Source: a virus
Lineage: Duplodnaviria > Caudoviricetes
Length of the DNA stretch: 58,187 bases
Strand: one strand, 5' to 3'
IMG/VR virus record: IMGVR_UViG_3300021197_000536
Coordinates: 1 to 58,187 of that record
Shown here one piece after another: positions 2,085-38,305 of the stretch (positions within the stretch are counted from its first letter, which is position 1; every line of letters begins with the position of its first letter). The notes under the pieces were generated by a model. The model was not told the origin of the DNA. It ran no database searches and saw only the letters and a list, made by a program, of their open reading frames with translations. Both the position numbers and the translations under genes were made by a program.

Positions 2085-2384
2085 ATGGACTTTAAGAAGT
2101 ATGAAAAAGAGCTGAACGAAGCAGGCTATATCGTCTCTAGAGACATGGTAGCTAACTTTCGTGGTGATGTCGTAGGTCAGATGGACCCATACGGTGAGTT
2201 CCACTACAGCGACAAAGAGATGGCTTTGGTCATCTGTGCAGCTATGCGAGCTGAAGAAGAGAAGCCAGCTAAGAAGCCTGTTAAGAAAGTAGCTCCTAAG
2301 AAGAAGCGCGCTCGGGACGAAGATGGTCACTTCAAGGCTGACGACCCTTCTACACCTGACGTCAACGAGGCTTGGGAAGACTAA
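2085..2384 (+). CDS. hypothetical protein
   Basis: ATG 2085 after AAGGAG; C-terminal RARDEDGHFKADDPSTPDVNEAW. Confidence 0.7.
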   Translation: MDFKKYEKELNEAGYIVSRDMVANFRGDVVGQMDPYGEFHYSDKEMALVICAAMRAEEEKPAKKPVKKVAPKKKRARDEDGHFKADDPSTPDVNEAWED

Positions 2385-2746
2385 TGCCTAGTAGTCGTGA
2401 CTACACAACATTCTTTGAGAGCTCGTCTATAACCTCCACAACTACGGGTGCGGCGGCTGATGTCGTATACACTGCCCCAGCTAACCACGACGCTGAGCTC
2501 ACAATGCTGGTGTGCACCAATGGTGCAGCTACAAACAAAATCAACGTCCAGGTCTACCATGCAGACGACGGCGTCTACCACTACCTCTTACGTGATCACA
2601 GTGTAGCAGGTAACGACACCCACCACGCAGTCACCAGTAACCGTCTCTTTCTACACGCTGGTGATAAGATCGTAGCGTATAAGACTGGGGGTACTTTCGA
2701 CGTGTCTATCTCAGGTAAACAGATCTACAACCCAACGAGGGCCTAA
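2384..2746 (+). CDS. small beta-rich putative virion protein
   Basis: TAATG coupling; VYTAPA... jelly-roll-like pattern. Confidence 0.6.
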   Translation: MPSSRDYTTFFESSSITSTTTGAAADVVYTAPANHDAELTMLVCTNGAATNKINVQVYHADDGVYHYLLRDHSVAGNDTHHAVTSNRLFLHAGDKIVAYKTGGTFDVSISGKQIYNPTRA

Positions 2747-2748
2747 GC

Positions 2749-3114
2749 ATGACTAAAAGAGCATTAACTGAAAAGCAAGAGTTGTTCCTAGCTGTACTCT
2801 TTGAAGAAGCAGAGGGCGATCCCTTGAAGGCTAAGAAGCTGGCGGGTTACTCCGATAACGTCCCTACTTCTTCTGTCACTGCCTCTCTCACAGACGAGAT
2901 TGCTGAGCTTACCCGTAAGTTCATTGCACAGAGCTCCACTAAGGCAGCGTACGCTATGTTCAAGGTCTTAGGTGATCAGGACATGCTAGGTGCTAAGGAG
3001 CGTATGGCAGCGGCGAAGGACATCATGGACCGTGCTGGTTTCGTTAAGACTGAGAAGGTCGAGGTCTCCACAGTGGAGCCTGTCTTTATTCTACCATCTA
3101 AGAAAGAAGATTAA
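2749..3114 (+). CDS. putative terminase small subunit
   Basis: LTEKQELFL...AKKLAGYS N-terminal pattern typical of TerS; upstream of terL. Confidence 0.6.
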   Translation: MTKRALTEKQELFLAVLFEEAEGDPLKAKKLAGYSDNVPTSSVTASLTDEIAELTRKFIAQSSTKAAYAMFKVLGDQDMLGAKERMAAAKDIMDRAGFVKTEKVEVSTVEPVFILPSKKED

Positions 3115-3405
3115 ATGGCCGCTAAGAAAGACCCACGCCTAGAGAGAGCCGGTGTATCAGGCTTCAACAAGCCTAAACGTACACCTAATCACCCTAAGAA
3201 GTCCCACGTCGTTGTTGCCAAAGAAGGTGATAAGATCAAGACTATCCGTTTCGGAGAGCAGGGTGCTAAGACAGCAGGTAAGCCTAAAGCAGGTGAGTCT
3301 GACAAGATGAAGAAGAAACGTGCTAGCTTCAAGGCTCGTCACGGGAAGAACATCTCCAAAGGTAAGATGTCTGCCGCCTACTGGGCTGATAAGGCTAAGT
3401 GGTGA
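3115..3405 (+). CDS. small Lys/Arg-rich phage protein
   Basis: IRFGEQGA, SFKARH and SAAYWA motifs; very basic. Confidence 0.75.
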   Translation: MAAKKDPRLERAGVSGFNKPKRTPNHPKKSHVVVAKEGDKIKTIRFGEQGAKTAGKPKAGESDKMKKKRASFKARHGKNISKGKMSAAYWADKAKW

Positions 3406-3410
3406 TCTAG

Positions 3411-3596
3411 ATGCCAGCAGCCAAGAAGAAAAGTACAGTAAACGCAGCAGGAAACTACACAAAGCCTACCATGCGTAAGAACCTCTTCAACTCTATTAAG
3501 GCGGGGACGAAAGGTGGTAAAGCCGGTCAGTGGTCTGCACGTAAAGCCCAGATGCTAGCTAAACAGTATAAGGCTAAGGGAGGTGGTTACAAATGA
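3411..3596 (+). CDS. small Lys-rich phage protein
   Basis: GQWSARKAQMLAKQYKAKGGGYK; ATGA coupling to next gene. Confidence 0.75.
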   Translation: MPAAKKKSTVNAAGNYTKPTMRKNLFNSIKAGTKGGKAGQWSARKAQMLAKQYKAKGGGYK

Positions 3597-3901
3597 AAGC
3601 TTCCCAGAAGTCTCTTAAGAAGTGGACGAAGGAGGAGTGGGGTACCAAGTCTGGTAAGAACTCTACCCAAGGTAAGAAAGCAACTGGCGAGAGATACTTG
3701 CCCAAATCAGCGAGAGAAGCATTGACAGATAAAGAGTATGCAGCAACAACAGCAGCTAAACGTAAAGGCAAAGCAGCTGGTAAACAACACGTAAAGCAAC
3801 CAGCAAAGATCGCTAAGAAAACAGCTCCTTACCGTATGAACAAAGGTGGCTACGTACCTTGTGGTGCTTCTAACCCAGGTACTCAGAAACGAAAAGGCTA
3901 G
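3593..3901 (+). CDS. small Lys-rich phage protein
   Basis: QKSLKKWTKEEW, GERYLP; C-terminal MNKGG...GASNPG. Confidence 0.75.
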   Translation: MKASQKSLKKWTKEEWGTKSGKNSTQGKKATGERYLPKSAREALTDKEYAATTAAKRKGKAAGKQHVKQPAKIAKKTAPYRMNKGGYVPCGASNPGTQKRKG

Positions 3902-3909
3902 ATAATAGC

Positions 3910-3938
3910 TTGACAACTAAGCGTGTGTGTGATATAAG
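3910..3938 (+). promoter_or_regulatory. sigma70-type promoter for packaging genes
   Basis: TTGACA(3910-3915)-17 bp-TATAAG(3933-3938), extended -10 TG. Confidence 0.7.
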
Positions 3939-4379
3939 ATGCCTAGGAAAGATGCTCCATCATTTAATGCTATACCTGTGGACCAGGCTTGGAAGATTCC
4001 AAAGAGAGGTCTAGACGGGGAGTGGTACCCAGTGGTACGTGTCGGAAGGCATATACCCTTTGGTTACGAGCAAGACGAGAATGACAAGGACATCCTTCAA
4101 CCTATCCCTGAGCAACTAGAAATGCTAGAACAAGCTAAGAGGTACTTAGTAGAGTACAGCTTAAGACTCGTAGCTCGTTGGCTTACAGAGCAGTCAGGTA
4201 GATACATCTCACATGTAGGACTAAACAAACGTGTCAGCATCGAACAAAAGAGGCGTAAAACGTCCAGCACCTATCGAGACTATGAACGGCGCTACAAAGA
4301 AGCCTCGGAAAAAGCCCGTAAGCTCGAAGAAGACCGAATCGGTGGAAGTGGTACAAGAAAGCTCGACTCCGACACCTGA
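3939..4379 (+). CDS. putative DNA-binding protein resembling the recombinase domain of large serine recombinases, no catalytic domain
   Basis: GRHIPFGY...YSLRLVARWL pattern; no N-terminal catalytic Ser motif. Confidence 0.55.
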   Translation: MPRKDAPSFNAIPVDQAWKIPKRGLDGEWYPVVRVGRHIPFGYEQDENDKDILQPIPEQLEMLEQAKRYLVEYSLRLVARWLTEQSGRYISHVGLNKRVSIEQKRRKTSSTYRDYERRYKEASEKARKLEEDRIGGSGTRKLDSDT

Positions 4380-5826
4380 GCTAGTTACTACACCAGCTCG
4401 TGCTAAGCCTGAGCCTATCGATGTAGAGAAGGCGCAAGAGATCATCTTCGCACCTAACCCTGGTCCTCAAACCGACTTCCTTGCAGCAAGCGAGCAAGAG
4501 GTTCTTTATGGTGGTGCTGCGGGTGGTGGTAAGTCCTACGCGATGGTAGCTGACCCAGTGCGTTACTTTAACAACCCCCAGTCCCGTGGACTCTTGGTCC
4601 GTCGTAGCACTGAGGAACTTCGTGAACTGATCTCGGTATCTAAACAGCTTTACCCTAGAGCTATCCCAGGTATCAAGTTCATGGAAAGAGATAAGACATG
4701 GGTCGCCCCTAGCGGTGCTACTCTCTGGATGTCCTACCTTGATCGTGACGATGACGTTATGCGTTACCAGGGTCAGGCTTTTAACTGGATTGGTTTAGAC
4801 GAACTTACACAGTGGCCTAGTCCTTTTGCTTGGAACTACATGCGTTCTCGTCTACGGGCTACTAGTGCATCTAAACTACCTCTCTATATGAGAGCTACTA
4901 CCAACCCCGGTGGCCCTGGTCATTTCTGGGTTAAGAAGACCTTCATTGATCCAGCCCCTGCTAACACTTCCTTCCACGCCACTGATGAGCACGGTGAGGT
5001 CATTGCTTGGCCTAAAGGACATTCTCGTGAAGGTGAGCCACTCTTTAAGAGACGGTTTATCCCTGCTAACCTATTTAACAACCCATACCTCGCTGAAGAT
5101 GGTATGTACGAAGCCAACCTACTCTCGATGCCTGAGCATCAGCGTAGACAACTACTAGAGGGTGACTGGAGTATCTCAGAGGGTGCAGCCTTCTCAGAGT
5201 TCAACCCTAAGACACATGTAGTCGAGCCTTACGATATCCCACACAGCTGGTCTAAGTTCAGAGCGTGTGACTACGGATACGGATCGATGACCGCAGTACT
5301 CTGGTTTGCTGTAACACCATCAGAGCAGATCGTTATATACCGCGAGTTATACGTCAACAAGACTACTGCCTCTGACTTAGCTGATATGATCAATGATATT
5401 GAAGCTGGTGAGAGGATTAGATACGGGGTGCTCGATAGCTCTCTGTGGCATAACAGAGGGGACACAGGGCCTTCCTTGGCTGAGCAGATGATCTTGAAGG
5501 GATGCCGTTGGCGTCCATCTGACCGTTCCAAGGGTTCACGTATCGCAGGTAAGAACGAGGTACACCGACGCCTACAGGTAGATGAGTTCACAGAGGAGCC
5601 TAGGTTGGTTTTCTTTAACACCTGCCGTAATATTATCACCGAGATACCAGCTCTGCCTCTTGATAAGAACAATCTAGAAGACGTAGACACTAAGAGCCCT
5701 ATCGACCACGGCTACGATGCTCTACGATACGGATTGATGACAAGACCCCGCAGTTCACTATGGGATTATGACCCCAACGCACAACGATCTGGCTTCCAAG
5801 CCTCTGATCCTCTTTTTGGTTACTAA
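4231..5826 (+). CDS. terL: terminase large subunit (true start probably later, e.g. GTG 4342)
   Basis: Walker A YGGAAGGGKS, Walker B IGLDELTQ, ATTNPGG, nuclease DYGY and DHGYDALRY. Confidence 0.95.
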   Translation: MSASNKRGVKRPAPIETMNGATKKPRKKPVSSKKTESVEVVQESSTPTPELVTTPARAKPEPIDVEKAQEIIFAPNPGPQTDFLAASEQEVLYGGAAGGGKSYAMVADPVRYFNNPQSRGLLVRRSTEELRELISVSKQLYPRAIPGIKFMERDKTWVAPSGATLWMSYLDRDDDVMRYQGQAFNWIGLDELTQWPSPFAWNYMRSRLRATSASKLPLYMRATTNPGGPGHFWVKKTFIDPAPANTSFHATDEHGEVIAWPKGHSREGEPLFKRRFIPANLFNNPYLAEDGMYEANLLSMPEHQRRQLLEGDWSISEGAAFSEFNPKTHVVEPYDIPHSWSKFRACDYGYGSMTAVLWFAVTPSEQIVIYRELYVNKTTASDLADMINDIEAGERIRYGVLDSSLWHNRGDTGPSLAEQMILKGCRWRPSDRSKGSRIAGKNEVHRRLQVDEFTEEPRLVFFNTCRNIITEIPALPLDKNNLEDVDTKSPIDHGYDALRYGLMTRPRSSLWDYDPNAQRSGFQASDPLFGY

Positions 5827-5835
5827 GGAATACAC

Positions 5836-7932
5836 ATGAGCATGTTCGAAGACGATGACTTTGAGATGGAAAACAACATGGAGCAGGCTGAGTCCTCTCA
5901 CGTTGGTGATATAGAAGAGGGTGAGACCGCTGATGAACCTGTGGGTCAGGTTGTATCCTTTGTACGAGAGCGGTTTAACAAGGCTGAAACAGCCCGTTAC
6001 CAGGACGAAGAGCGTTGGGTACGTGCTTACCGCAACTATCGAGGTATATACGGCCCTGATGTAGCGTTTACTAGCACTGAGAAGTCTCGCATCTTCGTTA
6101 AAGTCACTAAAACTAAGGTTCTTGCAGCCTATGGGCAGCTTGTAGAGGTGCTTTTCGGCAATAACAAGTTCCCAATCACCATCGATCCGACTACATTGCC
6201 GGAAGGCATTGCAGAAGCAGTGCATTTTGAGTCAAATCCAGAGATGCAGAAGGCTAAAGAGCCTGAGTTGTCACCGGAAGACACTAAACTACGCCCAGGG
6301 GAGACCTTTACAGACCTCCAAGAGCGTCTAGGAGCTCTAAAGTCCAAGCTTGAGCCTGTTATGGGCCAGTTGAAGGAGGGCGAGGGGCGTACAGCTACTG
6401 AGGTCACTCTCCACCCAGCTGCTATCGCTGCTAAGAAGATGGAAAAGAAGATCCATGACCAGTTAGAAGAGTCTGGTGCCTCTAAGAAGCTCCGTACAGC
6501 TGCATTTGAGTGTGCTCTGTTCGGTACCGGTGTTATGAAGGGTCCATTTGCTGTAGATAAAGAGTATCCACACTGGGATGACGAGGGTAACTATAAACCA
6601 CGTACTAAAACCATGCCTCAGTGCGATTCTGTGTCTATCTGGAACTTCTACCCTGACCCAGACGCTAATAGCATGGACGAAGCTGAGTATGCTATCGAAC
6701 GCCACAAGATGTCTCGGTCACAGATGCGAGCTCTTAAGCGTCGTCCCTTCTTCCGTAGCAATGCTATTGACCTAGCCCTTGCGTATGGTGAATCCTACAC
6801 TAAGGAGTGGTGGGAGCAGGCGATGGAAGACGATAGCGCCGAGACTAAGTCAGAGCGCTTCGAGGTTCTTGAGTTCTGGGGTTACGTTGATCGTGAGATA
6901 CTTGAAGACCACGGAGTAGACATCCCTCGTGAGCTTCGTAAGGCTGATCAGTTGAATGTTAACGTCTGGGTTTGTAATGGTGAGGTTCTCCGTCTCGTCA
7001 TGAACCCATTTAACCCACAGATCATTCCTTACTACGCAGTTCCATACGAAGTTAACCCTTACTCCTTCTTTGGTGTAGGTCTTGCTGAGAATATGGACGA
7101 CACACAGACCCTGATGAACGGCTTTATGCGTATGGCAGTCGACAATGCCGCCCTGTCAGGGAACCTCCTTATTGAGGTAGACGAGAATAACCTGACACCA
7201 GGTCAGAACTTGGATATCTATCCTGGTAAAGTCTTCCGTCGTAACGGCGGTGCCCCTGGTCAAGCTATCTTTGGTACGTCATTCCCTAACGTGTCTAACG
7301 AGAACATGCAGATGTTCGATAAGGCTCGTGTACTAGCTGACGAATCCACAGGTCTTCCTAGCTTTGCGCATGGTCAGACAGGTGTCTCCGGTGTTGGTCG
7401 AACAGCCTCCGGTATCTCTATGCTTATGTCGGCTGCTAACGGTTCTATCCGTACAGTCATCAAGAACGTAGACGACTACCTCTTAGGCCCCCTCGGCAAA
7501 GCCTACTTCTCCTTTAACATGCAGTTTGACCATGATCCTGAGATCAAAGGTGACCTTGAGGTTAAAGCACAGGGTACTTCATCCTTGATGGCTAACGAGG
7601 TTCGCTCCCAGCGTCTCATGCAGTTCCTACAAGTCGTACAGAACCCAGCATTGGCTCCTTTCGCTAAGATGGACTACGTCATCCGTGAGATCGCTGAGTC
7701 TATGGACCTCGACCCAGATAAGGTTGCTAACTCTCTTAGTGACGCAGCTGTACAGGCTGAGATCCTTAAGAAGTTCCAAGAGCAGAACCCTCCAGAACAG
7801 CCTCCGATGGCCTCTGGTGGCGCTCCTGCAGCCCCTACGGGCGGTGCCGGTGCCGGTGCTATGGGTACTGGTGCAGCTCCTGTCCCAGGGGAGCAGGGTT
7901 TCTCAGGTAACAATGGTCAACAACAAGTATAA
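5836..7932 (+). CDS. portal protein
   Basis: Follows terL; ~700 aa; FGTGVMK, IWNFYPDP, GVGLAENM, RTASGISML motifs. Confidence 0.9.
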   Translation: MSMFEDDDFEMENNMEQAESSHVGDIEEGETADEPVGQVVSFVRERFNKAETARYQDEERWVRAYRNYRGIYGPDVAFTSTEKSRIFVKVTKTKVLAAYGQLVEVLFGNNKFPITIDPTTLPEGIAEAVHFESNPEMQKAKEPELSPEDTKLRPGETFTDLQERLGALKSKLEPVMGQLKEGEGRTATEVTLHPAAIAAKKMEKKIHDQLEESGASKKLRTAAFECALFGTGVMKGPFAVDKEYPHWDDEGNYKPRTKTMPQCDSVSIWNFYPDPDANSMDEAEYAIERHKMSRSQMRALKRRPFFRSNAIDLALAYGESYTKEWWEQAMEDDSAETKSERFEVLEFWGYVDREILEDHGVDIPRELRKADQLNVNVWVCNGEVLRLVMNPFNPQIIPYYAVPYEVNPYSFFGVGLAENMDDTQTLMNGFMRMAVDNAALSGNLLIEVDENNLTPGQNLDIYPGKVFRRNGGAPGQAIFGTSFPNVSNENMQMFDKARVLADESTGLPSFAHGQTGVSGVGRTASGISMLMSAANGSIRTVIKNVDDYLLGPLGKAYFSFNMQFDHDPEIKGDLEVKAQGTSSLMANEVRSQRLMQFLQVVQNPALAPFAKMDYVIREIAESMDLDPDKVANSLSDAAVQAEILKKFQEQNPPEQPPMASGGAPAAPTGGAGAGAMGTGAAPVPGEQGFSGNNGQQQV

Positions 7933-7955
7933 TTACAACTAAGAGAGTAAGCAAT

Positions 7956-10900
7956 ATGTCAAGACTAACATCGAGAGAAGTTGTAGGTAGCACCAAGGCT
8001 CACCTAGAAGAACTAAACCAGATGACAGACGCGGGTGTTATCTACGTAGAGGAAGACACGGGCCGTATGGTATTAGGTGATGGTGTTCGCCGTTACCTAG
8101 AGATACCTTCGAATATACTTACTGCTGACCAAACAGACTTCCTTTCACACTGGACTTACGATGAGCCTACTCGTCGCCTAGTATCTACTAAGGCTATTGA
8201 AACAACACTTAACTCCTTGTACCTTGGTGAACAGCACAAGATGTCTTCTGGTTCAGAGAACATTTACTTCACTAACCTATCAAGTGACGTTAACTTCTTC
8301 CCTATGTGGGGCGGTCTTAAAGACCAGTCTATCACAGCTAACAGAGACAGCACAGGGTTTATCCCTCCAAGTGGTCGTGTCTATACTGACATGTTCTCTT
8401 TGCCTCTCGGTGGCGCTCCTGACCCCCTTGCTTCTGTAGGATATGATGGACCTAACTACTTTGGCATCAACATCTCTGGCCTTGGTATTACTACCACTGC
8501 TGCTGAACAGGTTGACGCCGATGTACGTCTTGAGTACCGCATCGTAATTAACGGTCGTCAGGTTTACATGCAGGAACTTCCCCGTGCTTCTGCCCGTTCT
8601 TCTGCTGGTTCAGTTATCTATCCTGGTGACGTTATTGAGTGGTTCTTTGACCACCCCGTTGATGTTCGTGCTGGTACTACCCTTCAAGCTACTATTATTA
8701 AAGTAGACAATGATACTGACGCTGACTTGGGTGTATTCCAAGTTCGTCAAGGTGACACTGTAGACCCTAACACTGGTCTCTATCGCTATCAGGCAACAGT
8801 ACACAACCGTTTGTTCGAAGACAAAGACCTAGAACTCATCTCCCCTTACCTTAAGTATAAGGCTATGGACTTTAGTGTTGACTCTACAGGCACTTCTATC
8901 TTGCTTAAGGACTTGTCCCTAGCGGCGGGTTCACAGATGCTTATTCCTCATAACATTAACACAATACAAGCTATTGCTAATGGTACTGAGATTAAGATTA
9001 TGGTTAAAGATGGCGCTAAGATTCTTGTTGAATCCTTGCCAGTCTCCGCTGTAAGCATCAACGGTTCTTTTGTAAACTCTGTATTGAATACAGCTGTAAC
9101 AGAACTTAACAACTTGTTTACTAACACTCTGAGCTTTGCTTCACAGGGTAATCCTGTAACTGGCTTTACGCTAAGTGGCAATGACCTGACCCTAGCACTA
9201 GCAGACGCTACTTCCTACACTGTTGACGTAACTACAATAGGTGTGGATACTAACAAGTTTGTAACTAGTGGTGCTTTAAACGGTACAGACCTAATCCTCA
9301 CTCTGAATGATGCTTCAACTGTTACTATTGATGCTTCTAACATGATTAACGGCTCTACTCTTACTGCCACTAATGACTCTTGGTTTATCTCTTATGGTAC
9401 TAACGCCAACGAACCTGTCGCTACAAGCGCTATAGATACTACAATAGTTGGTGGTGTTCAGGTACGCTTGCAAGGTCCGTACTACTTTGGTCAGAAGCTA
9501 CAGCGTGGACAAGAGTTCAAGTTCAACATGGACACAGGTAATCAACTTCGTTTGGGTATCTGGGATGGTGCTGAAGTAGCAACTTCTTACACAGACCAAG
9601 CGACTGCTGGCAACTGGAACACAGTGTTTAGCTATGCTAACGGCTCTGGTAAGTTCACAAGCTCTACTAACACAGATGTAACAACCTATCACGCAAGTGG
9701 CTATAGTGCTACTAACAACGCTCCTATGTCTATCCGCTTCGGCAATGATGGTCATATGACTCTGATGGATTTGTCTGGTGGTGTTGAAGTTATCGTAGCT
9801 AAGACAACCATTGCTTTGCCTGTTACTGAGTTCAACCTACAGTTCGGTGGATTCAACAACTCAGTATTCCCTAACGGCATTATCGACTCTACTTCTTTCC
9901 TTTGGGAAATTGTACACGACTTTGCTGGAACTGAAGCAGGTATTATCAACGGCATCCTAGACCACACAGTGCTTAAGTCTAACATCTCTATTCTCCCCGG
10001 AGAAAAGATTATGTTTATGCTTGATGAAGCAGGTACAGGTGATTTCTTTGGTACTGACTATACAGCCGCTGCTACAGGTGTCCTTACCGCTGAAGAACAG
10101 TTAGATGGTACATTCTACTATCAGACCAATGAAGCTATCGTATTTGATACGGCTGCTGGAGTCTCAGATTGGAATGCAAATACAAACGCACCTAATTACT
10201 TCTTTGCAGCAAGCCTAAACCAATACAGAGATGGTTCTGCTGGAACTATTCAGGGTATGTTTAGCTTACGCTACACAACAGACAACTCAATCACACTCTA
10301 TGATGAAGACTCTAATGTTAAGATTGCTACACGGAAAGCAGATGGTGACGGTACTACTCCTCTACACCTCTTCTTCGGTGTTAGAGGCAACCGTGCTTAC
10401 TACTCTATTCCGGTAATCTCTAAGCAGTCTATTACAGGTGGCTCACAGCCTAACCTGACGTTTGCTCCAGATGTTTCTAATCAGACGTTTACTGTTGAAC
10501 AAAACACTGCGTTTAGCTTGCAGATTGCTCTTGACGCTAACTCTGACATTGTTAACATGTATGGCGAAAGTGATGCTCCTTCTTGGGCAGTACTAGGCCA
10601 AGTAACAGGACAGTTCATTGGTACAGCACCAGCACATAACGGCTCAAGTGACTCCTATGTCATTAACTGTAAAGCTGCTAATGCTATTGGTGGTATTACT
10701 AACTTCACTGTGACTATCAATGTAACACTACCGGCCTACACCAACACCAAGTCTCTGAACTTGGATGGTTCAACCAACTGGCTCCAAGGTAACCCTGTCA
10801 ACATGACTGCTCTAGAACGGGCAACAAATGGTGACGGTAGTGCTTGGACAATCTCAATGTGGGTTAAACCAGATACATCAAACACAGGCAACCAGACTTT

Positions 10901-32593: not shown

Positions 32594-33250
32594 TTAGTAA
32601 GTTTCAATAACTTCATCGACGATACCGTGTTTAACACACTCCTCAGGGGTCAACCACTCATCAGTTGGGTGGAGGAGGTGCTTACGGATATACCGCTCAG
32701 ACTTCTTAGTGCACTTCTTGTAGTGCTCTACCATACGTTGACCTGCCATGTCGAACTCTTTGATCTTAGCTTGAAGTTCGTGTTCCTTGCCTACGCTACC
32801 CCAGGAGTACTGGTGTGACATAACAGAGGTGTTGTGTGTCACCATACGTCGATCACCTGCCATGATCGTTAGGACACCACAAGAGGCTACCAGACCCTTA
32901 CCTATTGTCGCTATAGGGATTTCTGACATCTTCATAGCGTCGATAAGATGGAATGCAGAATGCACTGACCCACCTGGGCTATTGATAACTAATGTGATCT
33001 GCTCAGGTTGCATCTCCTCAGGCATAAGGTTATACTCGTAGATAGCTGCTACAAGAGGCATGATCTTCTCTTGGTCGAACTTGTCAACTAGGAGTAGTAT
33101 ACCGTTCTCACGTAAGAGTGCACCTGGTTGTGGCATAGGCTCAGGTGTTTTCTCTTGTTGCTTACAGCAGCAGTGTACCTCCTCCTTCTTAGCTGGAGCT
33201 TTAGTCTTAGTGTCTTTCTTAGCGGATGATGTAAGTAGTGTATTAAGCAT
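32594..33250 (-). CDS. clpP: ClpP-like protease subunit
   Basis: INSPGGSV, catalytic Ser in VASCG, His in SHQ, Asp in DEWLTPEEC, GIVDEV. Confidence 0.9.
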   Translation of the reverse strand: MLNTLLTSSAKKDTKTKAPAKKEEVHCCCKQQEKTPEPMPQPGALLRENGILLLVDKFDQEKIMPLVAAIYEYNLMPEEMQPEQITLVINSPGGSVHSAFHLIDAMKMSEIPIATIGKGLVASCGVLTIMAGDRRMVTHNTSVMSHQYSWGSVGKEHELQAKIKEFDMAGQRMVEHYKKCTKKSERYIRKHLLHPTDEWLTPEECVKHGIVDEVIETY

Positions 33251-34268
33251 TTATGCGCTCCTCAGCTAGTTTATCTGCAACCTGTTGTGGGGTGATCCCC
33301 TCGTCCCTAGCAGTCATTAGGACTTCGAATGTCTTATGTTGGATTTGGACAAGCTTACGGTAAACTCCGATGTCCTTCCAACTTAAGTCTTGGTAGTTGT
33401 TTGATACGATGATAACACCTCCTGCGTTGGCTAGGTAGTCTGGCACCGTGACTATACCCTTCTTGAAGAAGGATACGGCTAAGGTATCGTTAGGTATCTG
33501 GTTGTTAGCTCCTCCGCAGATAATAGAACCTCTGTTCATCTCGTTGTAGCATTTGAGGTCAGCCGAACCTCCTAACGCACAAGGGGCATACACATCGATC
33601 TCAGGTAGAATGTCAGAGCGTTCCTTGTAAGGCTTAGCGTTGTAGCCAATCTTAGCAAGCATCTCCGACTCCTCTGAGATATCTGAGACACGCAGGGAGC
33701 TTCTTGCTTTGTGTAAGAAGTCAGCGAGACGAGAGCCAACCTTACCTAGGCCTTCGATGGCGACTGATACGTCAGCCATGTCCCGTCCTGTGAAATTGAC
33801 AGCACCTAGCATAGCCATGTACACACCGTAGGCGGTAGCGAAACCGCTGTCCTCGCCTAGGTTCTGACCATTGACAAACTCTGTCTGAGAGGCCAGGTAG
33901 GCAACCTGTTCAGGGCCGGTACCTACGTCCCCGGCTGTGATGTACACCAACTCATCCTTGTTTATGTAGTCCATGACATCCGCAAACTTCTTCAATGTCT
34001 CATGGTCAGCTAAAGGGGCGTTGATAGTAGCCTTACCGCCCCCTAGATCTAAACCAGCCAGTGAGTTCTTGTAGGTCATACCCTTGGCTAGGCTAAGTGC
34101 GTCAGACATCTGGTCCTCGAAGGTGTCGTAGGGCATAACCCTACAGCCCCCTAAGGCAACACCAAGCGCTACGCTGTGTATTGCAACAATGGCTCGGAAA
34201 CCTTCATCATCTTCAGCTATAACTACTCGGTGGTAGCCTCCTACTGGATGCTCTATAAACTGTAGCAT
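33243..34268 (-). CDS. Leu/Phe/Val dehydrogenase (Glu/Leu/Phe/Val family)
   Basis: ALGGCR, GMTYKN, GGGKA (catalytic Lys), GLGKVG Rossmann, PCALGG, GGANNQ, PDYLANAGGVI. Confidence 0.92.
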   Translation of the reverse strand: MLQFIEHPVGGYHRVVIAEDDEGFRAIVAIHSVALGVALGGCRVMPYDTFEDQMSDALSLAKGMTYKNSLAGLDLGGGKATINAPLADHETLKKFADVMDYINKDELVYITAGDVGTGPEQVAYLASQTEFVNGQNLGEDSGFATAYGVYMAMLGAVNFTGRDMADVSVAIEGLGKVGSRLADFLHKARSSLRVSDISEESEMLAKIGYNAKPYKERSDILPEIDVYAPCALGGSADLKCYNEMNRGSIICGGANNQIPNDTLAVSFFKKGIVTVPDYLANAGGVIIVSNNYQDLSWKDIGVYRKLVQIQHKTFEVLMTARDEGITPQQVADKLAEERINA

Positions 34269-34271
34269 TGT

Positions 34272-35246
34272 TTAACCTTTCTGTTTGATCTGTGCTTCGA
34301 ACTCACGTAAACGCTTCGCTACTGAGATCAACTCGATGATAGTTGGCCAGCTTTTAAGGATGAACTGCATAGAACCTTCCACTCGACCAAATGCCCGAAT
34401 GATCTGCTGCATGACACCTAGGGTAATCATACCACCTACGATAGCAGGTGCTAAGAAGATGTAAGCTGTCAACACATTGGCTTGTAAGTAGGCCATCCGT
34501 ACTACGTTGAACTTCAAGTACTGGAAGTAACTACGGAAGTGGATGCTACGTACGTCGTTAAACAGCTCTTCTAGAGGTTTCGGAGATAGTGTACCATCGT
34601 CCTCCATCTTAACGAGATGCTTTCGGTAAGCTGCTTCCTTGGCTTGGATGTCGTACTCAACACCCACAAGACGAAGGAAGTAACCGGCAACAACAAGTAG
34701 AAGAGTACCACCGATAGACCAAAGGAGAGCACCAGTGACCAAACCATATTCCCAATCTCCAAACCATAGAACTGCAATACCTGCCCCAAGCCCCAAGAGG
34801 ATAGGGAAGAACTCGACTAACACCATTACCGACTCAATGAGGGCAGTACCTAGTCCCTCTACGATCCTTGAGAACTTCACAGTATCCTCTTGGACACGTT
34901 GAGAAGCGCCCTCAATCGTACGAGCCTTGTCGTATACACTGTGATACCACTCTACCATTGAGGTTCTCCAACGGAAGAGGAAGTGAGCTGTGAAGAAGGA
35001 GCCCACCAAGGATAGTCCGACCCACATGGCAGCTAAGGTACCAAAGCTAGCAAGACCAGTCCAGTACTCTCCCATCGTTACAGTGCCAGGTTCGGTTAGT
35101 GCATTCTGGATCATGTCGTAAAACGAGCCGAACCACTCATTGATCTTAACGTCAATCTTAACTTGGAACCAAAGAGTACTCAGTATAAAGAGAGTACCAG
35201 CGTAGGCCCAGAGTGCGTATCTCCATTGCTTAAAGAATAAGAACAT
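34272..35246 (-). CDS. sbmA: SbmA/BacA-family peptide transporter
   Basis: INEWFGSFYDMIQ, FRWRTSM, IEGASQRVQEDT, EAAYRK, AFGRVEGSMQ, WPTIIELIS. Confidence 0.92.
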   Translation of the reverse strand: MFLFFKQWRYALWAYAGTLFILSTLWFQVKIDVKINEWFGSFYDMIQNALTEPGTVTMGEYWTGLASFGTLAAMWVGLSLVGSFFTAHFLFRWRTSMVEWYHSVYDKARTIEGASQRVQEDTVKFSRIVEGLGTALIESVMVLVEFFPILLGLGAGIAVLWFGDWEYGLVTGALLWSIGGTLLLVVAGYFLRLVGVEYDIQAKEAAYRKHLVKMEDDGTLSPKPLEELFNDVRSIHFRSYFQYLKFNVVRMAYLQANVLTAYIFLAPAIVGGMITLGVMQQIIRAFGRVEGSMQFILKSWPTIIELISVAKRLREFEAQIKQKG

Positions 35247-35247
35247 A

Positions 35248-35685
35248 TTACTTCCTTTCTGTCTCTACATCAGGTTGGTAATCGTCTAGCTCTAGGCCGG
35301 GGTTTCCTTCCGCGTTGTCTTCCCGCTCAATGAACTCACCAGTTGTAGCTTGTCCACCCTCAGTCTTAGCTTTAGCCTTTTCCAACTCCTCAGCAGTCTC
35401 CTGGGAGTACGGCATAACGTAGAGGCGGTTGCCTCTGTCTTCTGTCCAGATCCAGAGATTGATGTCATCTCCGTCTGTGTTGTGGTGTACGTACACAAAC
35501 TCGACAGTGGGGAAGCCTTGGATGGGTTTACCTAGTTGATCTGTGTAGTGCGCCTGTGTCACCACCCCTAGCAATACTGCAAGGGATAGTGCTGTTCCTT
35601 TTACACTGTAATGGATACTTGAGTAGAATACCATAAAGACAGTGACTGCAATGAGCAGTAGGTAGGCAGTGAGTATTAACGTCAT
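35248..35685 (-). CDS. membrane protein (2 TM plus soluble domain), third gene of the MotA/MotB-like trio
   Basis: ATG 35685; two hydrophobic helices, LGKP, INLWI, RLYVMPY. Confidence 0.7.
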   Translation of the reverse strand: MTLILTAYLLLIAVTVFMVFYSSIHYSVKGTALSLAVLLGVVTQAHYTDQLGKPIQGFPTVEFVYVHHNTDGDDINLWIWTEDRGNRLYVMPYSQETAEELEKAKAKTEGGQATTGEFIEREDNAEGNPGLELDDYQPDVETERK

Positions 35686-35686
35686 A

Positions 35687-36274
35687 TCAATTCCTTCCCG
35701 CCCTAGGGCGTAACGTAACTTGGACGTCTGTGCGGATATCTGTGATAAGACCATCCTCTACTTTAAAGACCAGTAGAGTACGCTCCTGTCTTGTATCCAA
35801 CACAACCTGACCTTCGTAGACGGTACTGAAGGGTACCACCTGAGTGACCCTAACTCTGATGTCCTCTGGCCCAGGTAGACGTGAGAAGAAGTGAGCGTTA
35901 ACAATGTAGGCACCGTCAGGCAGTACTGTCATTGTGGTGATCTCGTAGTTACGTTTAACAGCTACCTTCTTACCATTGATTACAAACGTGTCATTGACAG
36001 CACCTAGATCGTCTCTCTTGAGGGTAATGTAACCGTTACCTTTATTGGCGTAGAAGACTGTCTCTCCGTCAGGTCCTTTGACATGAAGATCGATGTCTAC
36101 TTTACTGTCATCACTCCACTCCATCTCAATCATGAGAACGATAGGTGGGTCCACAACACCTTGCTTGGCTATCGGATTGATAAGTAGGAATGCGATAACA
36201 AAGAGGCTAGTGAACCCAACTAAGAGATTGAATAGAAGATCTACGAAGGCTAGGTTTGAACTATACTTTCGCAT
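35687..36274 (-). CDS. MotB/ExbD-like single-pass membrane protein
   Basis: LAFVDLLFNLL TM helix with conserved-type Asp; soluble domain DIDLHV.GPDG...DDLG. Confidence 0.7.
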   Translation of the reverse strand: MRKYSSNLAFVDLLFNLLVGFTSLFVIAFLLINPIAKQGVVDPPIVLMIEMEWSDDSKVDIDLHVKGPDGETVFYANKGNGYITLKRDDLGAVNDTFVINGKKVAVKRNYEITTMTVLPDGAYIVNAHFFSRLPGPEDIRVRVTQVVPFSTVYEGQVVLDTRQERTLLVFKVEDGLITDIRTDVQVTLRPRAGRN

Positions 36275-36275
36275 A

Positions 36276-36689
36276 TCAACCCTCCAGTATAACTAGCTGC
36301 ATCTTTAACCAGAGTGATGCAACGAGACCCACAAGGGATGTTACAAGCGCTGTAGACATACCAGAGGCTAACGTACTAATAGCCTGTGTCATGCTCTCTA
36401 TGGAGCTTGTATCGATGTCTCCGAAGCTCTGGCCTAGGACCAATAAGAATCCGAAGAGAGTACCAACCATACCGATAGATAGCACTGCATCAGAGGCAAA
36501 CCAGTGTACGTCGGTCTGCTTGAAGAGCATTGAAGCTGTAGCTATGAGCGAGATAGCTATGATGACAAAGGAGAGGTACGTGCTGTCTGCCTCTAGGAGT
36601 AACCCAGCCAGTCCAAAGAAGTACTGACCGAGGGCTAGGCCCAGGAGACCTACATTAACGGTGAACCACCAAAACCAAGTTCTAAGCAT
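36276..36689 (-). CDS. minimal MotA/TolQ/ExbB proton-channel family protein
   Basis: IGMVGTLFGF...GMSTALVTSLVGL, the two conserved channel helices. Confidence 0.8.
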   Translation of the reverse strand: MLRTWFWWFTVNVGLLGLALGQYFFGLAGLLLEADSTYLSFVIIAISLIATASMLFKQTDVHWFASDAVLSIGMVGTLFGFLLVLGQSFGDIDTSSIESMTQAISTLASGMSTALVTSLVGLVASLWLKMQLVILEG

Positions 36690-36690
36690 C

Positions 36691-37347
36691 TCAGTATCCT
36701 TTCTTGAGTAGGCTCAACCGAAGTGGGTCAGCAACCCGTTCGTAAAGCCACAGGTCAGGCAACTCCACCGACTTTGAGTACTGCCCATCAACCATTCTAA
36801 ACAGCTTCAAATCATCTTGGTCAAGTATCAAGAAGGTCTTAGCGTCTGTGATAGTCGATACAATGTACATAAGCTGGTATGTGTAGCCCATAGTGAACAT
36901 GTAGTTAGATGTGAGTGTACCAATAAGCTGGCCTGACTTAAGACCCTCGTTGTGAGTACCTGCGCTGGGTGACCAAGCTACGTGGAAGCCTAGGATACCA
37001 TCCATCTGTAGGTTCGGGGCTCCAAGCAGAGCTACGGCACAGGCACTGAGGCAAACATCACCGTCTTTGACAACAGCGGTGGCGTTCTTATCACGTAGTA
37101 GGATACCGATACGGAACCCTTCGGCAGCAGCACCACCGTTGGAGTTCAAGTAGACCGTATTGGCACCTGATGCTTCCATTGCAGACTTGAGTCTCTTAGA
37201 GTCTCCTTCTTCGACGGTACCTTCAAAGGAGATAGTGTTGGAGTCCAAAGTTCGTATAGTAGAAGCCGTGGCAGCCGTGGTGCTGTAGATAAGTACCATT
37301 ATTAGTATTGCATTAGCAACTAGCATCTGTATAACTGGATTCTTCAT
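36691..37347 (-). CDS. exported ClpP/crotonase-fold protein (COG3904-like)
   Basis: Signal peptide; VYLNSNGG, CLSACAVALLGA, LGFH. Confidence 0.7.
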   Translation of the reverse strand: MKNPVIQMLVANAILIMVLIYSTTAATASTIRTLDSNTISFEGTVEEGDSKRLKSAMEASGANTVYLNSNGGAAAEGFRIGILLRDKNATAVVKDGDVCLSACAVALLGAPNLQMDGILGFHVAWSPSAGTHNEGLKSGQLIGTLTSNYMFTMGYTYQLMYIVSTITDAKTFLILDQDDLKLFRMVDGQYSKSVELPDLWLYERVADPLRLSLLKKGY

Positions 37348-37598
37348 AGTTTATCCTTTCCTTCTAGTTGATTGATCCTCATTTCAGAGTACCTAATCAC
37401 TTTCTGAAGGTCTATGATCTCAGATTCCATTTGAGTCTTACCTTCGTATAACTTGTAGCCAGCACGTGAGGCGTACTTCACGATGTTGCCTCGCCAGAAC
37501 TCGAAGCCATTCATCATGATGTAGGTGATAGGTTCGATGACCCATCGTGCGTAGTGCTTAGGCTCCGCTACAATGTCTTTATTCTTCTTAGTAGCCAT
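37344..37598 (-). CDS. DUF3310-like protein (T7 gp1.7-related)
   Basis: PKHY...IEPI...GNIVKYASRAGYK...DLQK; ATG 37598. Confidence 0.75.
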   Translation of the reverse strand: MATKKNKDIVAEPKHYARWVIEPITYIMMNGFEFWRGNIVKYASRAGYKLYEGKTQMESEIIDLQKVIRYSEMRINQLEGKDKL

Positions 37599-38305
37599 TA
37601 TAGCTTCTCCTCGTAAAATACTCTGACCCACTGTGCACAGATACCTGAGCGAACGATATCGTTTAGGTTGAACTCAACGATAGGGATAGGTAGCATATGC
37701 TTCTTAGCAAGGTGTGTGATCTTAGTAAGACCGTCACCGTCCTTCAAGTCAGTCTGCTGTACGTCACCATTAAGTACAATAGTGGAGCCTTCTCCAACTC
37801 GTGTGAGCAGCATCTTAAGTTCGTGGAGTGTGATGTTCTGAGCCTCGTCACAGATGATGAAAGCGTCATCGAAGCTACGTCCTCGCATCAAAGCAAGAGG
37901 TACCATCTCAATGTTGCCTGCCTTAACCCCAGTCTCCACAGCACCTTTACCTAAGTGCTTAGTGAGTACGTCGAGTACAGGTAGGGCCCAGGGGGCTGTC
38001 TTCTCACTAAGGTCCCCAGGGAGGATACCGATTTCCTTACCTACTGATACCATAGGTCGGGTGATGATGATCTTGTTGATATCCTTAGTTGTGTACAGGT
38101 CAGCAGCCAGAGTAGTGGTTACGTAGGTCTTACCGGTGCCTGCGGGTCCGAATACAATAACCTGAGAAGAGGAGTTGATAGCTTTGATGAGCTCCCCTTG
38201 GTTCTCAGTCTTAGGGACAATGCCTGACGTCTTCTTCTTAACAGCCCCTTTATATGTAGTCTCCCTCTTTCCTCTTGTTTTAGGCTTGGGTTTCTGTTGC
38301 ACCAT
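37598..38305 (-). CDS. phoH: PhoH-family ATPase
   Basis: GPAGTGKT, GILPGD, MRGRSF, DEAQN, LTRVGEGS, GDVQQTD, DIVRS. Confidence 0.95.
   Translation of the reverse strand: MVQQKPKPKTRGKRETTYKGAVKKKTSGIVPKTENQGELIKAINSSSQVIVFGPAGTGKTYVTTTLAADLYTTKDINKIIITRPMVSVGKEIGILPGDLSEKTAPWALPVLDVLTKHLGKGAVETGVKAGNIEMVPLALMRGRSFDDAFIICDEAQNITLHELKMLLTRVGEGSTIVLNGDVQQTDLKDGDGLTKITHLAKKHMLPIPIVEFNLNDIVRSGICAQWVRVFYEEKL

Follow-up and report, generated by a model that had tools for sequence, protein, structure and literature searches.

The three adjacent genes A, B, and C described here form a three-gene envelope module that is common to Alphaproteobacteria and their phages and is no phage-only device. The trio is cellular by origin or at least by use, and its sequences suggest that it most likely encodes an ion-driven stator-like complex with a periplasmic output. 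The cassette was analysed in the window, the whole 58,187-nucleotide stretch of viral DNA under study (IMG/VR record IMGVR_UViG_3300021197_000536, positions 1 to 58,187), the source of which is an HMO-2011-type marine podophage. Of the readings considered, the one held with somewhat better than even confidence is that A, B, and C are a single operon for a MotA/ExbB-type complex driven by the ion-motive force.

The trio lies on the minus strand at 35248-36689, the interval singled out in an earlier sequence-only reading of this DNA, and the coordinates of its features are listed in Table 1. The longest open reading frame for C spans 35248-35754; translation most probably begins at the ATG at 35685, giving a protein of 145 aa, since this codon is placed one base past the stop of B, is accompanied by a GGAAGGA Shine-Dalgarno-like run, and coincides with the position at which the homologues begin. 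The A/B junction and the junction between the upstream gene and A show an identical pattern of stop codon, one base, and ATG, with purine-rich runs, and the one-base junctions and Shine-Dalgarno-like runs indicate translational coupling of A, B, and C. All three are far beyond chance ORFs, because dozens of homologues were found for each protein and the gene order is conserved.

Table 1. Features of the A-B-C cassette and its two immediate neighbours (window coordinates).
Feature	Coordinates	Strand	Basis or remark
ClpP-related protein, 218 aa, N-terminal hydrophobic leader; neighbour, non-core	36691..37347	(-)	NCBIfam Clp_rel_HeadMat (E 6.9e-7), PHROG protease families
Gene A, 137 aa	36276..36689	(-)	ORF
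A residues 72-126, last two TM helices	36312..36476	(-)	Aligned to PF01618 positions 59-105
Gene B, 195 aa	35687..36274	(-)	ORF
TM helix of B, residues 9-31	36182..36250	(-)	Asp12 codon at 36239-36241
TerD/DUF2135-type beta-sandwich of B, residues 47-182	35729..36136	(-)	Structural match
Gene C, 145 aa	35248..35685	(-)	Start picked from homologue starts and SD-like run
SbmA/BacA-like inner-membrane transporter, 324 aa; neighbour, non-core	34272..35246	(-)	Pfam SbmA_BacA (E 4.1e-126)

The A-B-C order held at every locus examined with enough sequence. Among 80 viral loci, A was present in 79, B in 77, and C in 77, and each miss coincided with a contig end; the 55 genome loci, mostly from SAR116, contained A in 54, B in 54, and C in 53, and 20 further sampled alphaproteobacterial loci contained A in 20, B in 20, and C in 17. 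The two-helix third protein to which the sequence-only reading had drawn attention is therefore a constant companion of A and B in viral, genome, and bacterial loci. The viral carriers belong to several unrelated phage types, including the HMO-2011 type and large myovirus-like genomes, and three Rhizobium phages also carry A-B-C. Of 401 Alphaproteobacteria sampled, 56 had B homologues, with ordinary cellular genes on their flanks, and the family comprises 1651 protein clusters at 50% identity (E<=1e-10).

In a complete SAR116 chromosome, the operon stands alone among cellular genes, with TctC, TctA, cupin, and DUF1127 genes on one flank and luciferase-like monooxygenase, Zn-dehydrogenase, and anthranilate synthase genes on the other. 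The same flanks were retained across many species-level SAR116 genomes with very low sequence divergence, and no fourth recurrent neighbour beyond A, B, and C was found in the 20 further bacterial loci. One SAR116 genome contains five PF01618 matches, so that the short A occurs beside ordinary paralogues. A prophage origin of the SAR116 copies was considered and rejected in view of the cellular flanks and of five loci in which no tRNA gene was detected. The trio had at first been taken for a phage device, with interference with host Ton/Tol/Zorya systems among its suggested roles. The former view is not supported as it was put, in light of the stand-alone chromosomal operon and the bacterial homologues of B, and the cellular distribution argues against phage-only roles such as a decoy or poison, so that a host-type envelope function carried along by phages is favoured instead.

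Gene A encodes a hydrophobic protein with four predicted transmembrane (TM) helices, a nearly absent cytoplasmic loop, and a C-terminus that extends 9 residues past the last helix (helix 4). Its loop charges agree with an N-in, four-TM topology under the positive-inside rule, which served as the sole basis for the predicted topologies of A, B, and C. Membership of A in the MotA/ExbB/TolQ superfamily is weak for the window protein alone and clear at the family level. The window protein scored 19.5 bits against PF01618, below the Pfam cut-off of 22.9, and its SAR116 orthologue scored 32.8-33.3 bits, over the cut-off; the profile matched 20/20 aligned A relatives at E<=0.01 (best 3.3e-8) and was present in 87 of the best 120 database relatives, and one A relative is named 'MotA/TolQ/ExbB proton channel family protein' at NCBI. 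These results bear out the description of A in the sequence-only reading as a protein reduced almost to the MotA/ExbB channel helices. The phage and SAR116 forms are without a cytoplasmic loop and are short compared with other cellular relatives, and phage A is, to our knowledge, among the smallest ring subunits of the superfamily.

The last two TM helices of A carry the motifs G-x-x-G-T-x-x-G-F and M-x-x-A-L-x-T-x-L-x-G. Across 20 sequences, the invariant residues were G73, G76, T77, G80, F81, and L85 in helix 3 and M111, A114, L115, T117, L119, G121, and S125 in helix 4. We take the conserved Thr residues to be counterparts of the Thr residues of ExbB/TolQ, with small and Thr residues presumably lining the ion path. 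When the A profile was compared against PDB sequences, MotA/PomA were the sole chains reached, on TM3-TM4 and at a non-significant E>=1.1. With the balanced NCBIfam library, ZorA models were the commonest matches of 20 A relatives (15, 12, and 7 of 20); ZorA2 matched 15/20, ZorA_4 12/20, MotA 2/20, and TolQ 1/20, and the PADLOC ZorA2 model PDLC00636 matched A at E 7.7e-9. A tblastn search of A on the phage collection gave no match, and the A genes of the Rhizobium phages surfaced solely by iterated profile search.

Gene B encodes, in order, a short basic N-terminus (mean 2.2 K/R and 0.2 D/E), a single TM helix bearing Asp12, a conserved I-N-P linker, and a beta-sandwich predicted to be periplasmic. 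Asp12 occupies the fourth position in the helix, near its cytoplasmic end, and belongs to the motif AFVDLL; a second motif, DIDLHV...DDLG, covers residues 59-91. Asp12 was kept in 102 of 104 distinct B homologues, the remaining two being alignment gaps, and D60, D62, D88, D89, G91, E111, and E164 were found in 104/104. The position of its gene directly after A, its one TM helix with an Asp, and its acidic cluster give B the look of a stator partner. B itself had no family match in Pfam, NCBIfam, or PADLOC, and the ExbD, MotB, and OmpA families were matched by 0/21 B members scanned. The DUF2135 Pfam profile matched 1/21 members (E 0.019), TerD was not among the listed matches, and the JGI label 'YfaP (DUF2135 family)' was attached to 4 of 120 listed B relatives.

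Structural comparisons were performed using an AlphaFold2 model of B (pLDDT 85.7). VIA-align matched the model with 2qz7_B, a TerD homologue (Z 10.5, rmsd 3.4, 131 aligned), and with 2kxt, TerD (Z 9.6, rmsd 4.0, 133 aligned), the next-best match having a Z of 6.0, and Foldseek matched it with the TerD-like 3ibz (E 2.3e-4). As modelled, the periplasmic domain of B is a TerD/DUF2135-type beta-sandwich, and the earlier view of B, as an Asp-bearing TM helix joined to a domain that is neither OmpA-like nor ExbD, can be kept with this fold assignment added. The invariant acidic cluster of the sandwich (D60, D62, D88, D89, D95, E111, and E164) probably binds Ca2+. The domain has the fold of TerD/DUF2135 (YfaP) proteins, and conserved Asp-rich motifs are also a feature of the Ca2+-binding TerD proteins of the matched entries. 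TerD proteins are soluble and cytoplasmic, and the matched solved chains (169-174 residues) lack the N-terminal TM helix of B, whereas the sandwich of B follows a stator-type TM helix and is predicted to face the periplasm.

Gene C is predicted to encode a two-helix TM hairpin (residues 2-51) followed by a beta-beta-beta-alpha-beta-beta domain (residues 63-135; model pLDDT 87.5). The hairpin loop is basic, with 1.8 K/R and 0.1 D/E, so by the positive-inside rule the beta domain would be located in the periplasm. The hairpin is poorly conserved and may be a mere anchor; G52, I75, and G111 were the only invariant residues. Foldseek matches of C were of OB-fold type and weak, all with E>=0.06, and the 'OB-like' label for the domain is derived from the strand-helix order alone. 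VIA-align with the whole C model yielded a list taken up by matches to helical hairpins (Z up to 7.4), and the C profile gave chance-level matches only against PDB sequences. An NfeD-like reading, in which a ClpP-class protease is paired with a membrane-anchored OB domain, was rejected because NfeD was absent from the Pfam matches of 20 C relatives and from the listed fold matches. The TonB and TolA Pfam families were likewise absent from the matches of 20 C members, and no longer, fused forms of C were found among proteins of 309-2000 residues, a range that lies above the 297-aa lysozyme-bearing Atlas cluster discussed below. A complex prediction with two copies of A, two of B, and one of C, in which C was scored, gave a score of 0.00 and a mark of 0.32, with the controls not folded and the result uninformative on C binding.

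In the proposed mechanism, A would form an ion-conducting ring that encloses the B helices in an assumed ratio, by analogy, of five A to two B subunits, and ions would pass by way of Asp12 of B and the conserved Thr and Gly residues in the last two A helices. Work or a signal would exit on the periplasmic side, given that phage A is practically without a cytoplasmic part. The outlet would be the TerD-type beta-sandwich of B, probably Ca2+-binding and held just above the membrane, and C, the small beta-barrel of which is also predicted to face the periplasm, would be the likely partner, an arrangement resembling TolQ-TolR acting on TolA. Several unrelated phage lineages carry the trio as an accessory set of host-like envelope genes, and in Alphaproteobacteria it forms stand-alone operons; in the phage lineage of the window, it would share a transcript with the genes for a secreted ClpP-like protein and an SbmA-like importer.

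Comparison with known systems showed partial likeness to several of them. MotA-MotB and PomA-PomB share with the trio a four-TM, N-in ring protein with conserved last two helices and a partner with Asp near the cytoplasmic helix end, but phage and SAR116 A lack the cytoplasmic torque-generating loop, B lacks an OmpA-like domain, and no flagellar genes were found in the flanks inspected. The gene order of the trio is that of TolQ-TolR-TolA, and with these proteins and ExbB-ExbD-TonB it has in common a MotA/ExbB-family protein, a bitopic Asp protein, a third membrane-anchored and presumably periplasmic protein, and a presumed periplasmic output. When 104 B sequences were aligned with 26 ExbD/TolR sequences using hhalign, the F-x-D-hydrophobic start of the B helix lined up with their motif and the Asp was in register, over 15 columns only (P 0.031, probability 1.6%), which is too little to demonstrate homology of the TM helix. 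The ExbD fold, however, is absent from B (Pfam 0/21), TolQ models reach a single one of the 20 A relatives, and no outer-membrane partner is evident for the trio. C anchors a compact domain of about 85 residues by two TM helices, whereas in TonB and TolA a single TM helix is joined through a long spacer to a TonB_C-type domain. Estimated from their lengths, the periplasmic parts of B and C look too small to span to the outer membrane, and the Ton/Tol analogy is therefore loose. A precedent is given by GldL-GldM/PorL-PorM, the 5:2 motor of type IX secretion and gliding, in which the ring subunit is small and the axle has an all-beta periplasmic part that does its work in the periplasm; no sequence or fold match with it was found, and GldM is long and periplasm-spanning in contrast to the single compact sandwich of B.

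The likeness to ZorA-ZorB, which extends from the profile proximity of the A TM part to the A-then-B gene order and the single Asp-bearing TM helix of B, raises the alternative that the trio is a minimal Zorya-like sensor or depolariser. Such a device would open only upon a disturbance of the envelope, such as the arrival of a phage, and would then drain the membrane potential, aborting infection in a bacterium or causing superinfection exclusion in a phage or prophage. This alternative is considered unlikely. It is in keeping with the ZorA TM regions as the nearest named relatives of A, with the membership of TerD domains in the ter operon, reportedly a determinant of phage and colicin resistance, and with the non-recurring surroundings at the 20 alphaproteobacterial loci and the unrelated phage carriers, as for mobile defence genes. 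However, all ZorA scores lay far under the family cut-offs, the window protein reaching at most 17.4 bits with the NCBIfam models against cut-offs of 100-700, and A is without the long cytoplasmic tail of ZorA. In place of the peptidoglycan-binding domain of ZorB, B has a TerD-type sandwich, and the trio is without ZorC, ZorD, and ZorE but includes the constant membrane protein C; PADLOC yielded no match to ZorB, ZorC, ZorD, or ZorE-like families, or to any further family, for B, C, or either flanking gene. The constant SAR116 flanks and low divergence also resemble a vertically kept housekeeping locus, unlike a variable defence island.

The genes around the phage copy point to a second alternative, namely that the motor energises a phage island for uptake or envelope protection, acting with the secreted ClpP-like protein, the SbmA-like importer, an amino-acid dehydrogenase, and ClpP so that peptides are imported and degraded, whether as nutrients or to counter antimicrobial peptides, during phage production. 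In the window, a protease-like gene, A, B, C, the SbmA-like gene (391.1 bits against NCBIfam NF009036, cut-off 385), one further gene, and ClpP are packed into a tight string with gaps of 1-3 bases or overlaps. At least two phage types that are unrelated to each other carry the island, since it was also found in a complete 203,815-base viral record without a match to the window terminase, and viral locus L046 has the same genes in a different order. The ClpP-related gene was found beside the cassette at 50/80 viral loci and the SbmA-like gene at 41/80. Against this stands the absence of both from the 55 genome loci (0/55 each) and of any recurrent neighbour from the 20 other bacterial loci, from which it follows that the core cassette works without them. 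Furthermore, 23 distinct viral B sequences came from loci without the SbmA-like or the protease-like gene, where the neighbours were tail sheath, Hsp20/ClpS, DnaB/Pol III, and gp15 genes. On the B tree, which was generated with FastTree, midpoint-rooted, and has many long branches, two changes suffice for the island label, so the co-occurrence mostly reflects shared ancestry. SbmA-type importers are also not known to us to need an outer-membrane energiser, and the role of island energiser is judged doubtful and rather improbable.

It is quite improbable that A, B, and C are no motor at all, their MotA/ExbB likeness being a remnant in small membrane proteins that serve lysis timing (holin-like or antiholin-like) or act as a passive scaffold. 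Lysis proteins are common among small multi-TM phage proteins, and an ESM Atlas structure search paired the C beta domain with a 297-aa viral cluster, all members of which carry Phage_lysozyme (TM 0.79 by query), a match that serves as a lead only. SAR116 and other Alphaproteobacteria nevertheless carry the operon on the chromosome without phage genes nearby, Pfam and PHROGs gave no holin or lysis match, and the residues conserved are the Asp of B and the Thr and Gly of the last two A helices, which we take to be the ion-path-defining residues of the superfamily. Finally, A is shortened relative to its cellular relatives, as a dominant-negative subunit might be, but its use as a tail-less, loop-less decoy that joins and disables ExbB, TolQ, MotA, or ZorA rings of the host is very improbable, because its own B and C always accompany it, SAR116 chromosomes keep the short A beside ordinary paralogues, and A is just distantly related to those families.

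MotAB, ExbBD, TolQR, AglRQS, GldLM, and ZorAB are the known ion-driven motors of this superfamily, and each of them opened a field. As a stator-like complex, the trio would add a branch to the superfamily, one in which the axle domain and the third subunit are both new. No published study of A-B-C was found, including in the literature on DUF2135 with or without MotA. The HMO-2011-type phages are described as dominant in the sea, and the main text of the corresponding genome paper contains no mention of MotA, ExbB, TolQ, SbmA, 'proton channel', or Clp (PMC9038755). The trio is not rare, being carried by SAR116 bacteria and HMO-2011-type phages and represented by the 1651 clusters. Owing to its small size, phage A is an appealing minimal system for structural and mechanistic studies of the conversion of ion flow to movement, and the role of the trio would reveal an envelope function worth carrying for marine phages. 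In its fullest form, to which only a small likelihood is assigned, the proposal is that of one more class of ion-driven rotary motor directed at the periplasm, with a Ca2+-binding TerD-type sandwich on the axle instead of a peptidoglycan-binding or ExbD domain, and a dedicated two-TM protein that takes up the output. Abundant marine phages, of the HMO-2011 type and with large myovirus-like genomes, would carry it reduced to a 137-aa ring subunit, in some cases within a mobile island (secreted protease-like protein, SbmA-like importer, ClpP) that would rewire the uptake of the infected cell or its endurance at the envelope.

The window, a viral record of 58,187 bases, encodes a large terminase sharing 69-79% identity with its counterparts in Roseobacter phages CRP-13 and CRP-9 and Puniceispirillum phage HMO-2011, and was therefore assigned to the HMO-2011-type podophages. 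Three adjoining membrane-protein genes, designated A (137 aa), B (195 aa) and C, are located in a tight minus-strand run in which genes are separated by one to three bases or overlap slightly. The junctions between the upstream gene and A, A and B, and B and C alike consist of a stop codon, one base and an ATG, and a purine-rich, Shine-Dalgarno-like run precedes each of the three. Read as its longest ORF, C would start at 35754, within B; since homologues begin at the ATG at 35685, C was taken to be 145 aa long.

Gene run around the A-B-C trio in the window
Feature	Position	Strand	Basis
PhoH	37598-38305	-	Name from annotation of matching phage records
95-aa ORF	37344-37631	-	ORF call
ClpP-related protein with hydrophobic leader	36691-37347	-	Family match
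A	36276-36689	-	Family match
B	35687-36274	-	ORF call
C	35248-35685	-	Start placed where homologues begin
SbmA/BacA-like transporter	34272-35246	-	Pfam E 4.1e-126; NCBIfam NF009036 391.1 bits
Glu/Leu/Phe/Val-type dehydrogenase	33243-34268	-	Pfam ELFV_dehydrog_N E 9.9e-19
ClpP, standard	32594-33250	-	E 1.6e-29

Two ClpP-class genes are present in the window. The first may encode a secreted or membrane-anchored protein because of its N-terminal hydrophobic leader, and a Lys-rich N-terminal extension with Cys residues (...HCCCKQQ...) precedes the standard ClpP. The SbmA/BacA-like inner-membrane transporter has no ATPase domain; its score against NF009036 ('putative transporter') exceeds the cut-off of 385 bits, and it matched only four records in the cultured-phage collection, none of them from marine phages. 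As a guess, the substrate of the marine-phage protein may be peptides or some cofactor of the ribonucleotide reductase encoded nearby. Across the window and all fetched viral loci, only six records contained the amino-acid dehydrogenase gene that separates the SbmA-like gene from ClpP.

The Pfam model PF01618 (MotA_ExbB) matched A of the window weakly (19.5 bits versus a cut-off of 22.9, residues 72-126) and the A orthologue of SAR116, an alphaproteobacterial group, with 32.8-33.3 bits. It matched 20 of 20 diverse A relatives at E<=0.01 (best 3.3e-8), a precomputed match was available for 87 of the best 120 database relatives, and one relative is named 'MotA/TolQ/ExbB proton channel family protein' by NCBI. 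Among solved structures, the A-family profile reached MotA and PomA chains only, over TM3-TM4, at E values of at least 1.1. Invariant residues were found in the third helix (G73, G76, T77, G80, F81), the fourth helix (M111, A114, L115, T117, G121) and the first outer loop (D35, T37). MotA has an N-in topology with four TM helices, and loop charge counts for A fit the same arrangement, in which the predicted cytoplasmic loop of the window protein spans about 13 residues. These profile matches place A in the MotA/ExbB superfamily, and the pared-down MotA/ExbB-like protein proposed by the sequence-only reading is retained.

No family match was obtained for B in Pfam, NCBIfam or PADLOC. Its short basic N-terminus leads into one TM helix with Asp12 as the fourth residue; 102 of 104 distinct phage and bacterial homologues keep this Asp, the remaining two being alignment gaps. 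Further conserved are F10, L13-N16, G20 and an I-N-P turn on the outer side, where the helix ends. When B was compared with 26 alphaproteobacterial ExbD/TolR sequences using hhalign, Asp12 was in register with the ExbD/TolR Asp, and because this alignment covers 15 columns only (P 0.031, probability 1.6%), the likeness of the helix is one of motif rather than established homology. In the AlphaFold2 model (pLDDT 85.7) a beta-sandwich starts at residue 47, which matched TerD structures with Z scores of 10.5 and 9.6 (next match 6.0) and a TerD-like structure (3ibz) in Foldseek with E 2.3e-4; some relatives carry the JGI label 'YfaP (DUF2135 family)'. Seven residues, D60, D62, D88, D89, G91, E111 and E164, are invariant in 104/104. 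A putative Ca2+ site in the sandwich is reasonable, since the title of one matched entry is that of a study of the calcium-binding properties of TerD. B combines the hallmark Asp of MotA/ExbB-family partners with a TerD-type domain, and both the Asp-bearing TM helix and the domain of neither OmpA-like nor ExbD type first read from its sequence were recovered.

The model of C (pLDDT 87.5) consists of a two-helix hairpin followed by a beta-beta-beta-alpha-beta-beta domain, with weak fold matches of OB-fold type only (E>=0.06). Because the hairpin loop is basic, charge counts place the domain, as a prediction, outside the cytoplasm. The only invariant residues are G52, I75 and G111. In the ESM Atlas the small domain was found in large uncharacterised viral clusters and, as a lead and not as evidence, in a single cluster of 297-aa proteins that also carry a phage lysozyme domain.

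For counts in viral contigs, the best 80 of 170 confirmed loci were taken; A was found in 79, B in 77 and C in 77, always in the order A-B-C, and every miss was at a contig end. The phage settings of the cassette differ widely: behind a tail-sheath gene (with a 545-aa ORF one gene further upstream), between Hsp20 and ClpS, behind DnaB and DNA polymerase III alpha, and two genes behind a T4 gp15-like gene. B was detected in 29 cultured-phage records, all Rhizobium or Sinorhizobium phages, and is surrounded by A-like and C-like genes in phages 16-3, RHph_N3_19 and RL38J1. In phage 16-3 (locus L002, positions 2274-4135) other genes break up the cassette: p039, of 96 aa and unrelated, separates A (p038) from B (p040), a 61-aa membrane ORF (p041) separates B from C (p042), and a periplasmic trypsin-like protease gene (p036) is two genes upstream. 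In another viral locus (L014), A and B are separated by an additional 150-aa ORF (3576-4028), which matched both the A profile (E 7e-47) and the B profile (E 3e-15) and may be an A/B fragment of duplicated or chimeric origin.

B relatives numbered 274 at E<=0.001 in a word-indexed search and, among 1.84 billion cluster representatives, 2188 (E<=0.001), 1651 (E<=1e-10) or 554 (E<=1e-30), nearly all of about 200 aa. A scan of species-representative genomes, restricted to one very specific peptide pattern, nevertheless yielded 55 loci, mostly SAR116; A and B were each present in 54 of them and C in 53. C is the obligate third membrane protein of the trio and corresponds to the 2-TM protein seen from sequence. 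A complete 2.2-Mb SAR116 chromosome has TctC, TctA, cupin and DUF1127 genes on one flank of the trio and luciferase-like monooxygenase, Zn-dehydrogenase and anthranilate synthase genes on the other; no tRNA genes were found and no phage genes seen in these flanks. This genome holds four further PF01618 matches, one with an ExbD match about 100 bases past it. Among SAR116 single-cell and MAG contigs (L089-L121), about 24 of the 55 genome loci have the contig end roughly 50-160 bases upstream of A, and the B match starts 391-618 bases from it. This stretch seems hard to assemble or variable; the complete genome has a 370-base intergenic gap there, behind the DUF1127 gene.

A profile search of 401 genomes drawn evenly from the Alphaproteobacteria detected B in 56. 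Of 20 such loci, A-B were adjacent in all 20 and followed by C in 17, with no other recurring neighbour. The trio is one unit, and its distribution is cellular as well as viral; the earlier reading of it as a phage device is not borne out in that form. ORF lengths of A are about 200-280 aa in most of these bacteria (starts in high-GC loci being approximate), with extra residues past the second helix in the long sequences inspected, and 136-175 aa in phages and SAR116. On a FastTree phylogeny of 104 B sequences, with an arbitrary root and many long branches, SAR116 copies formed one tight clade within a viral clade (support 96), and most long-A bacterial copies branched outside.

Solved relatives of the MotA/ExbB superfamily assemble as 5:2. 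By analogy, A would form a ring around B helices, with ions passing at Asp12, and, as phage A lacks a cytoplasmic domain that could exert force, output would be periplasmic, via the sandwich and C, in a manner resembling the action of TolQ-TolR on TolA. This whole package, including a cell envelope role, is considered somewhat probable. Within it, an ion-conducting MotAB/ExbBD-like A-B pair is likely, and C being their physical partner has a slightly better than even chance.

A Zorya-like role in defence or superinfection exclusion, as sensor and depolariser, is unlikely. It draws on the profile matches of A, which lean towards ZorA: PADLOC ZorA2 matched the window protein with E 7.7e-9, and among NCBIfam models for ZorA, MotA, PomA and TolQ, with all scores far under cut-offs, ZorA models were commonest in A members (15/20, 12/20 and 7/20, versus MotA 2/20 and TolQ 1/20). 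However, Zorya has a ZorA tail and effectors, both missing from the trio, and the SAR116 locus is stable. A role tied to neighbouring genes is quite unlikely. A complete viral record of 203,815 bases (L060), in which the terminase of the window found no match, carries protease-like, A, B, C, SbmA-like, 155-aa ORF and ClpP genes (3636-8276); this suggests transfer of the island as one piece from one type of phage to another, and the set recurs in another order in viral locus L046; but the neighbours occur in 0/55 genome loci, many viral loci are without them, and the island label is clustered on the B tree. A role other than that of a motor, for instance in lysis timing, is very doubtful. Interference with host stators, raised earlier, is most unlikely because the operon also occurs in bacteria and B and C always accompany A.

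Many non-flagellar pairs of unassigned function are described as 'generic ion transporter' pairs in a 2025 survey of MotAB relatives (PMC12505986); 'TerD' and 'beta-sandwich' are absent from the main text of that survey. The main text of the HMO-2011-type phage paper (PMC9038755) contains no MotA, ExbB, TolQ, SbmA, 'proton channel' or Clp, although its supplements might list them, and full-text searches found no paper on DUF2135, alone or with MotA. The trio thus combines a known ring family with an axle domain and a third subunit that are rated as new, and its ring protein is unusually reduced. Since bacteria maintain it as a stand-alone operon, the trio probably serves an envelope function of the cell, which phages would keep up or boost during infection.
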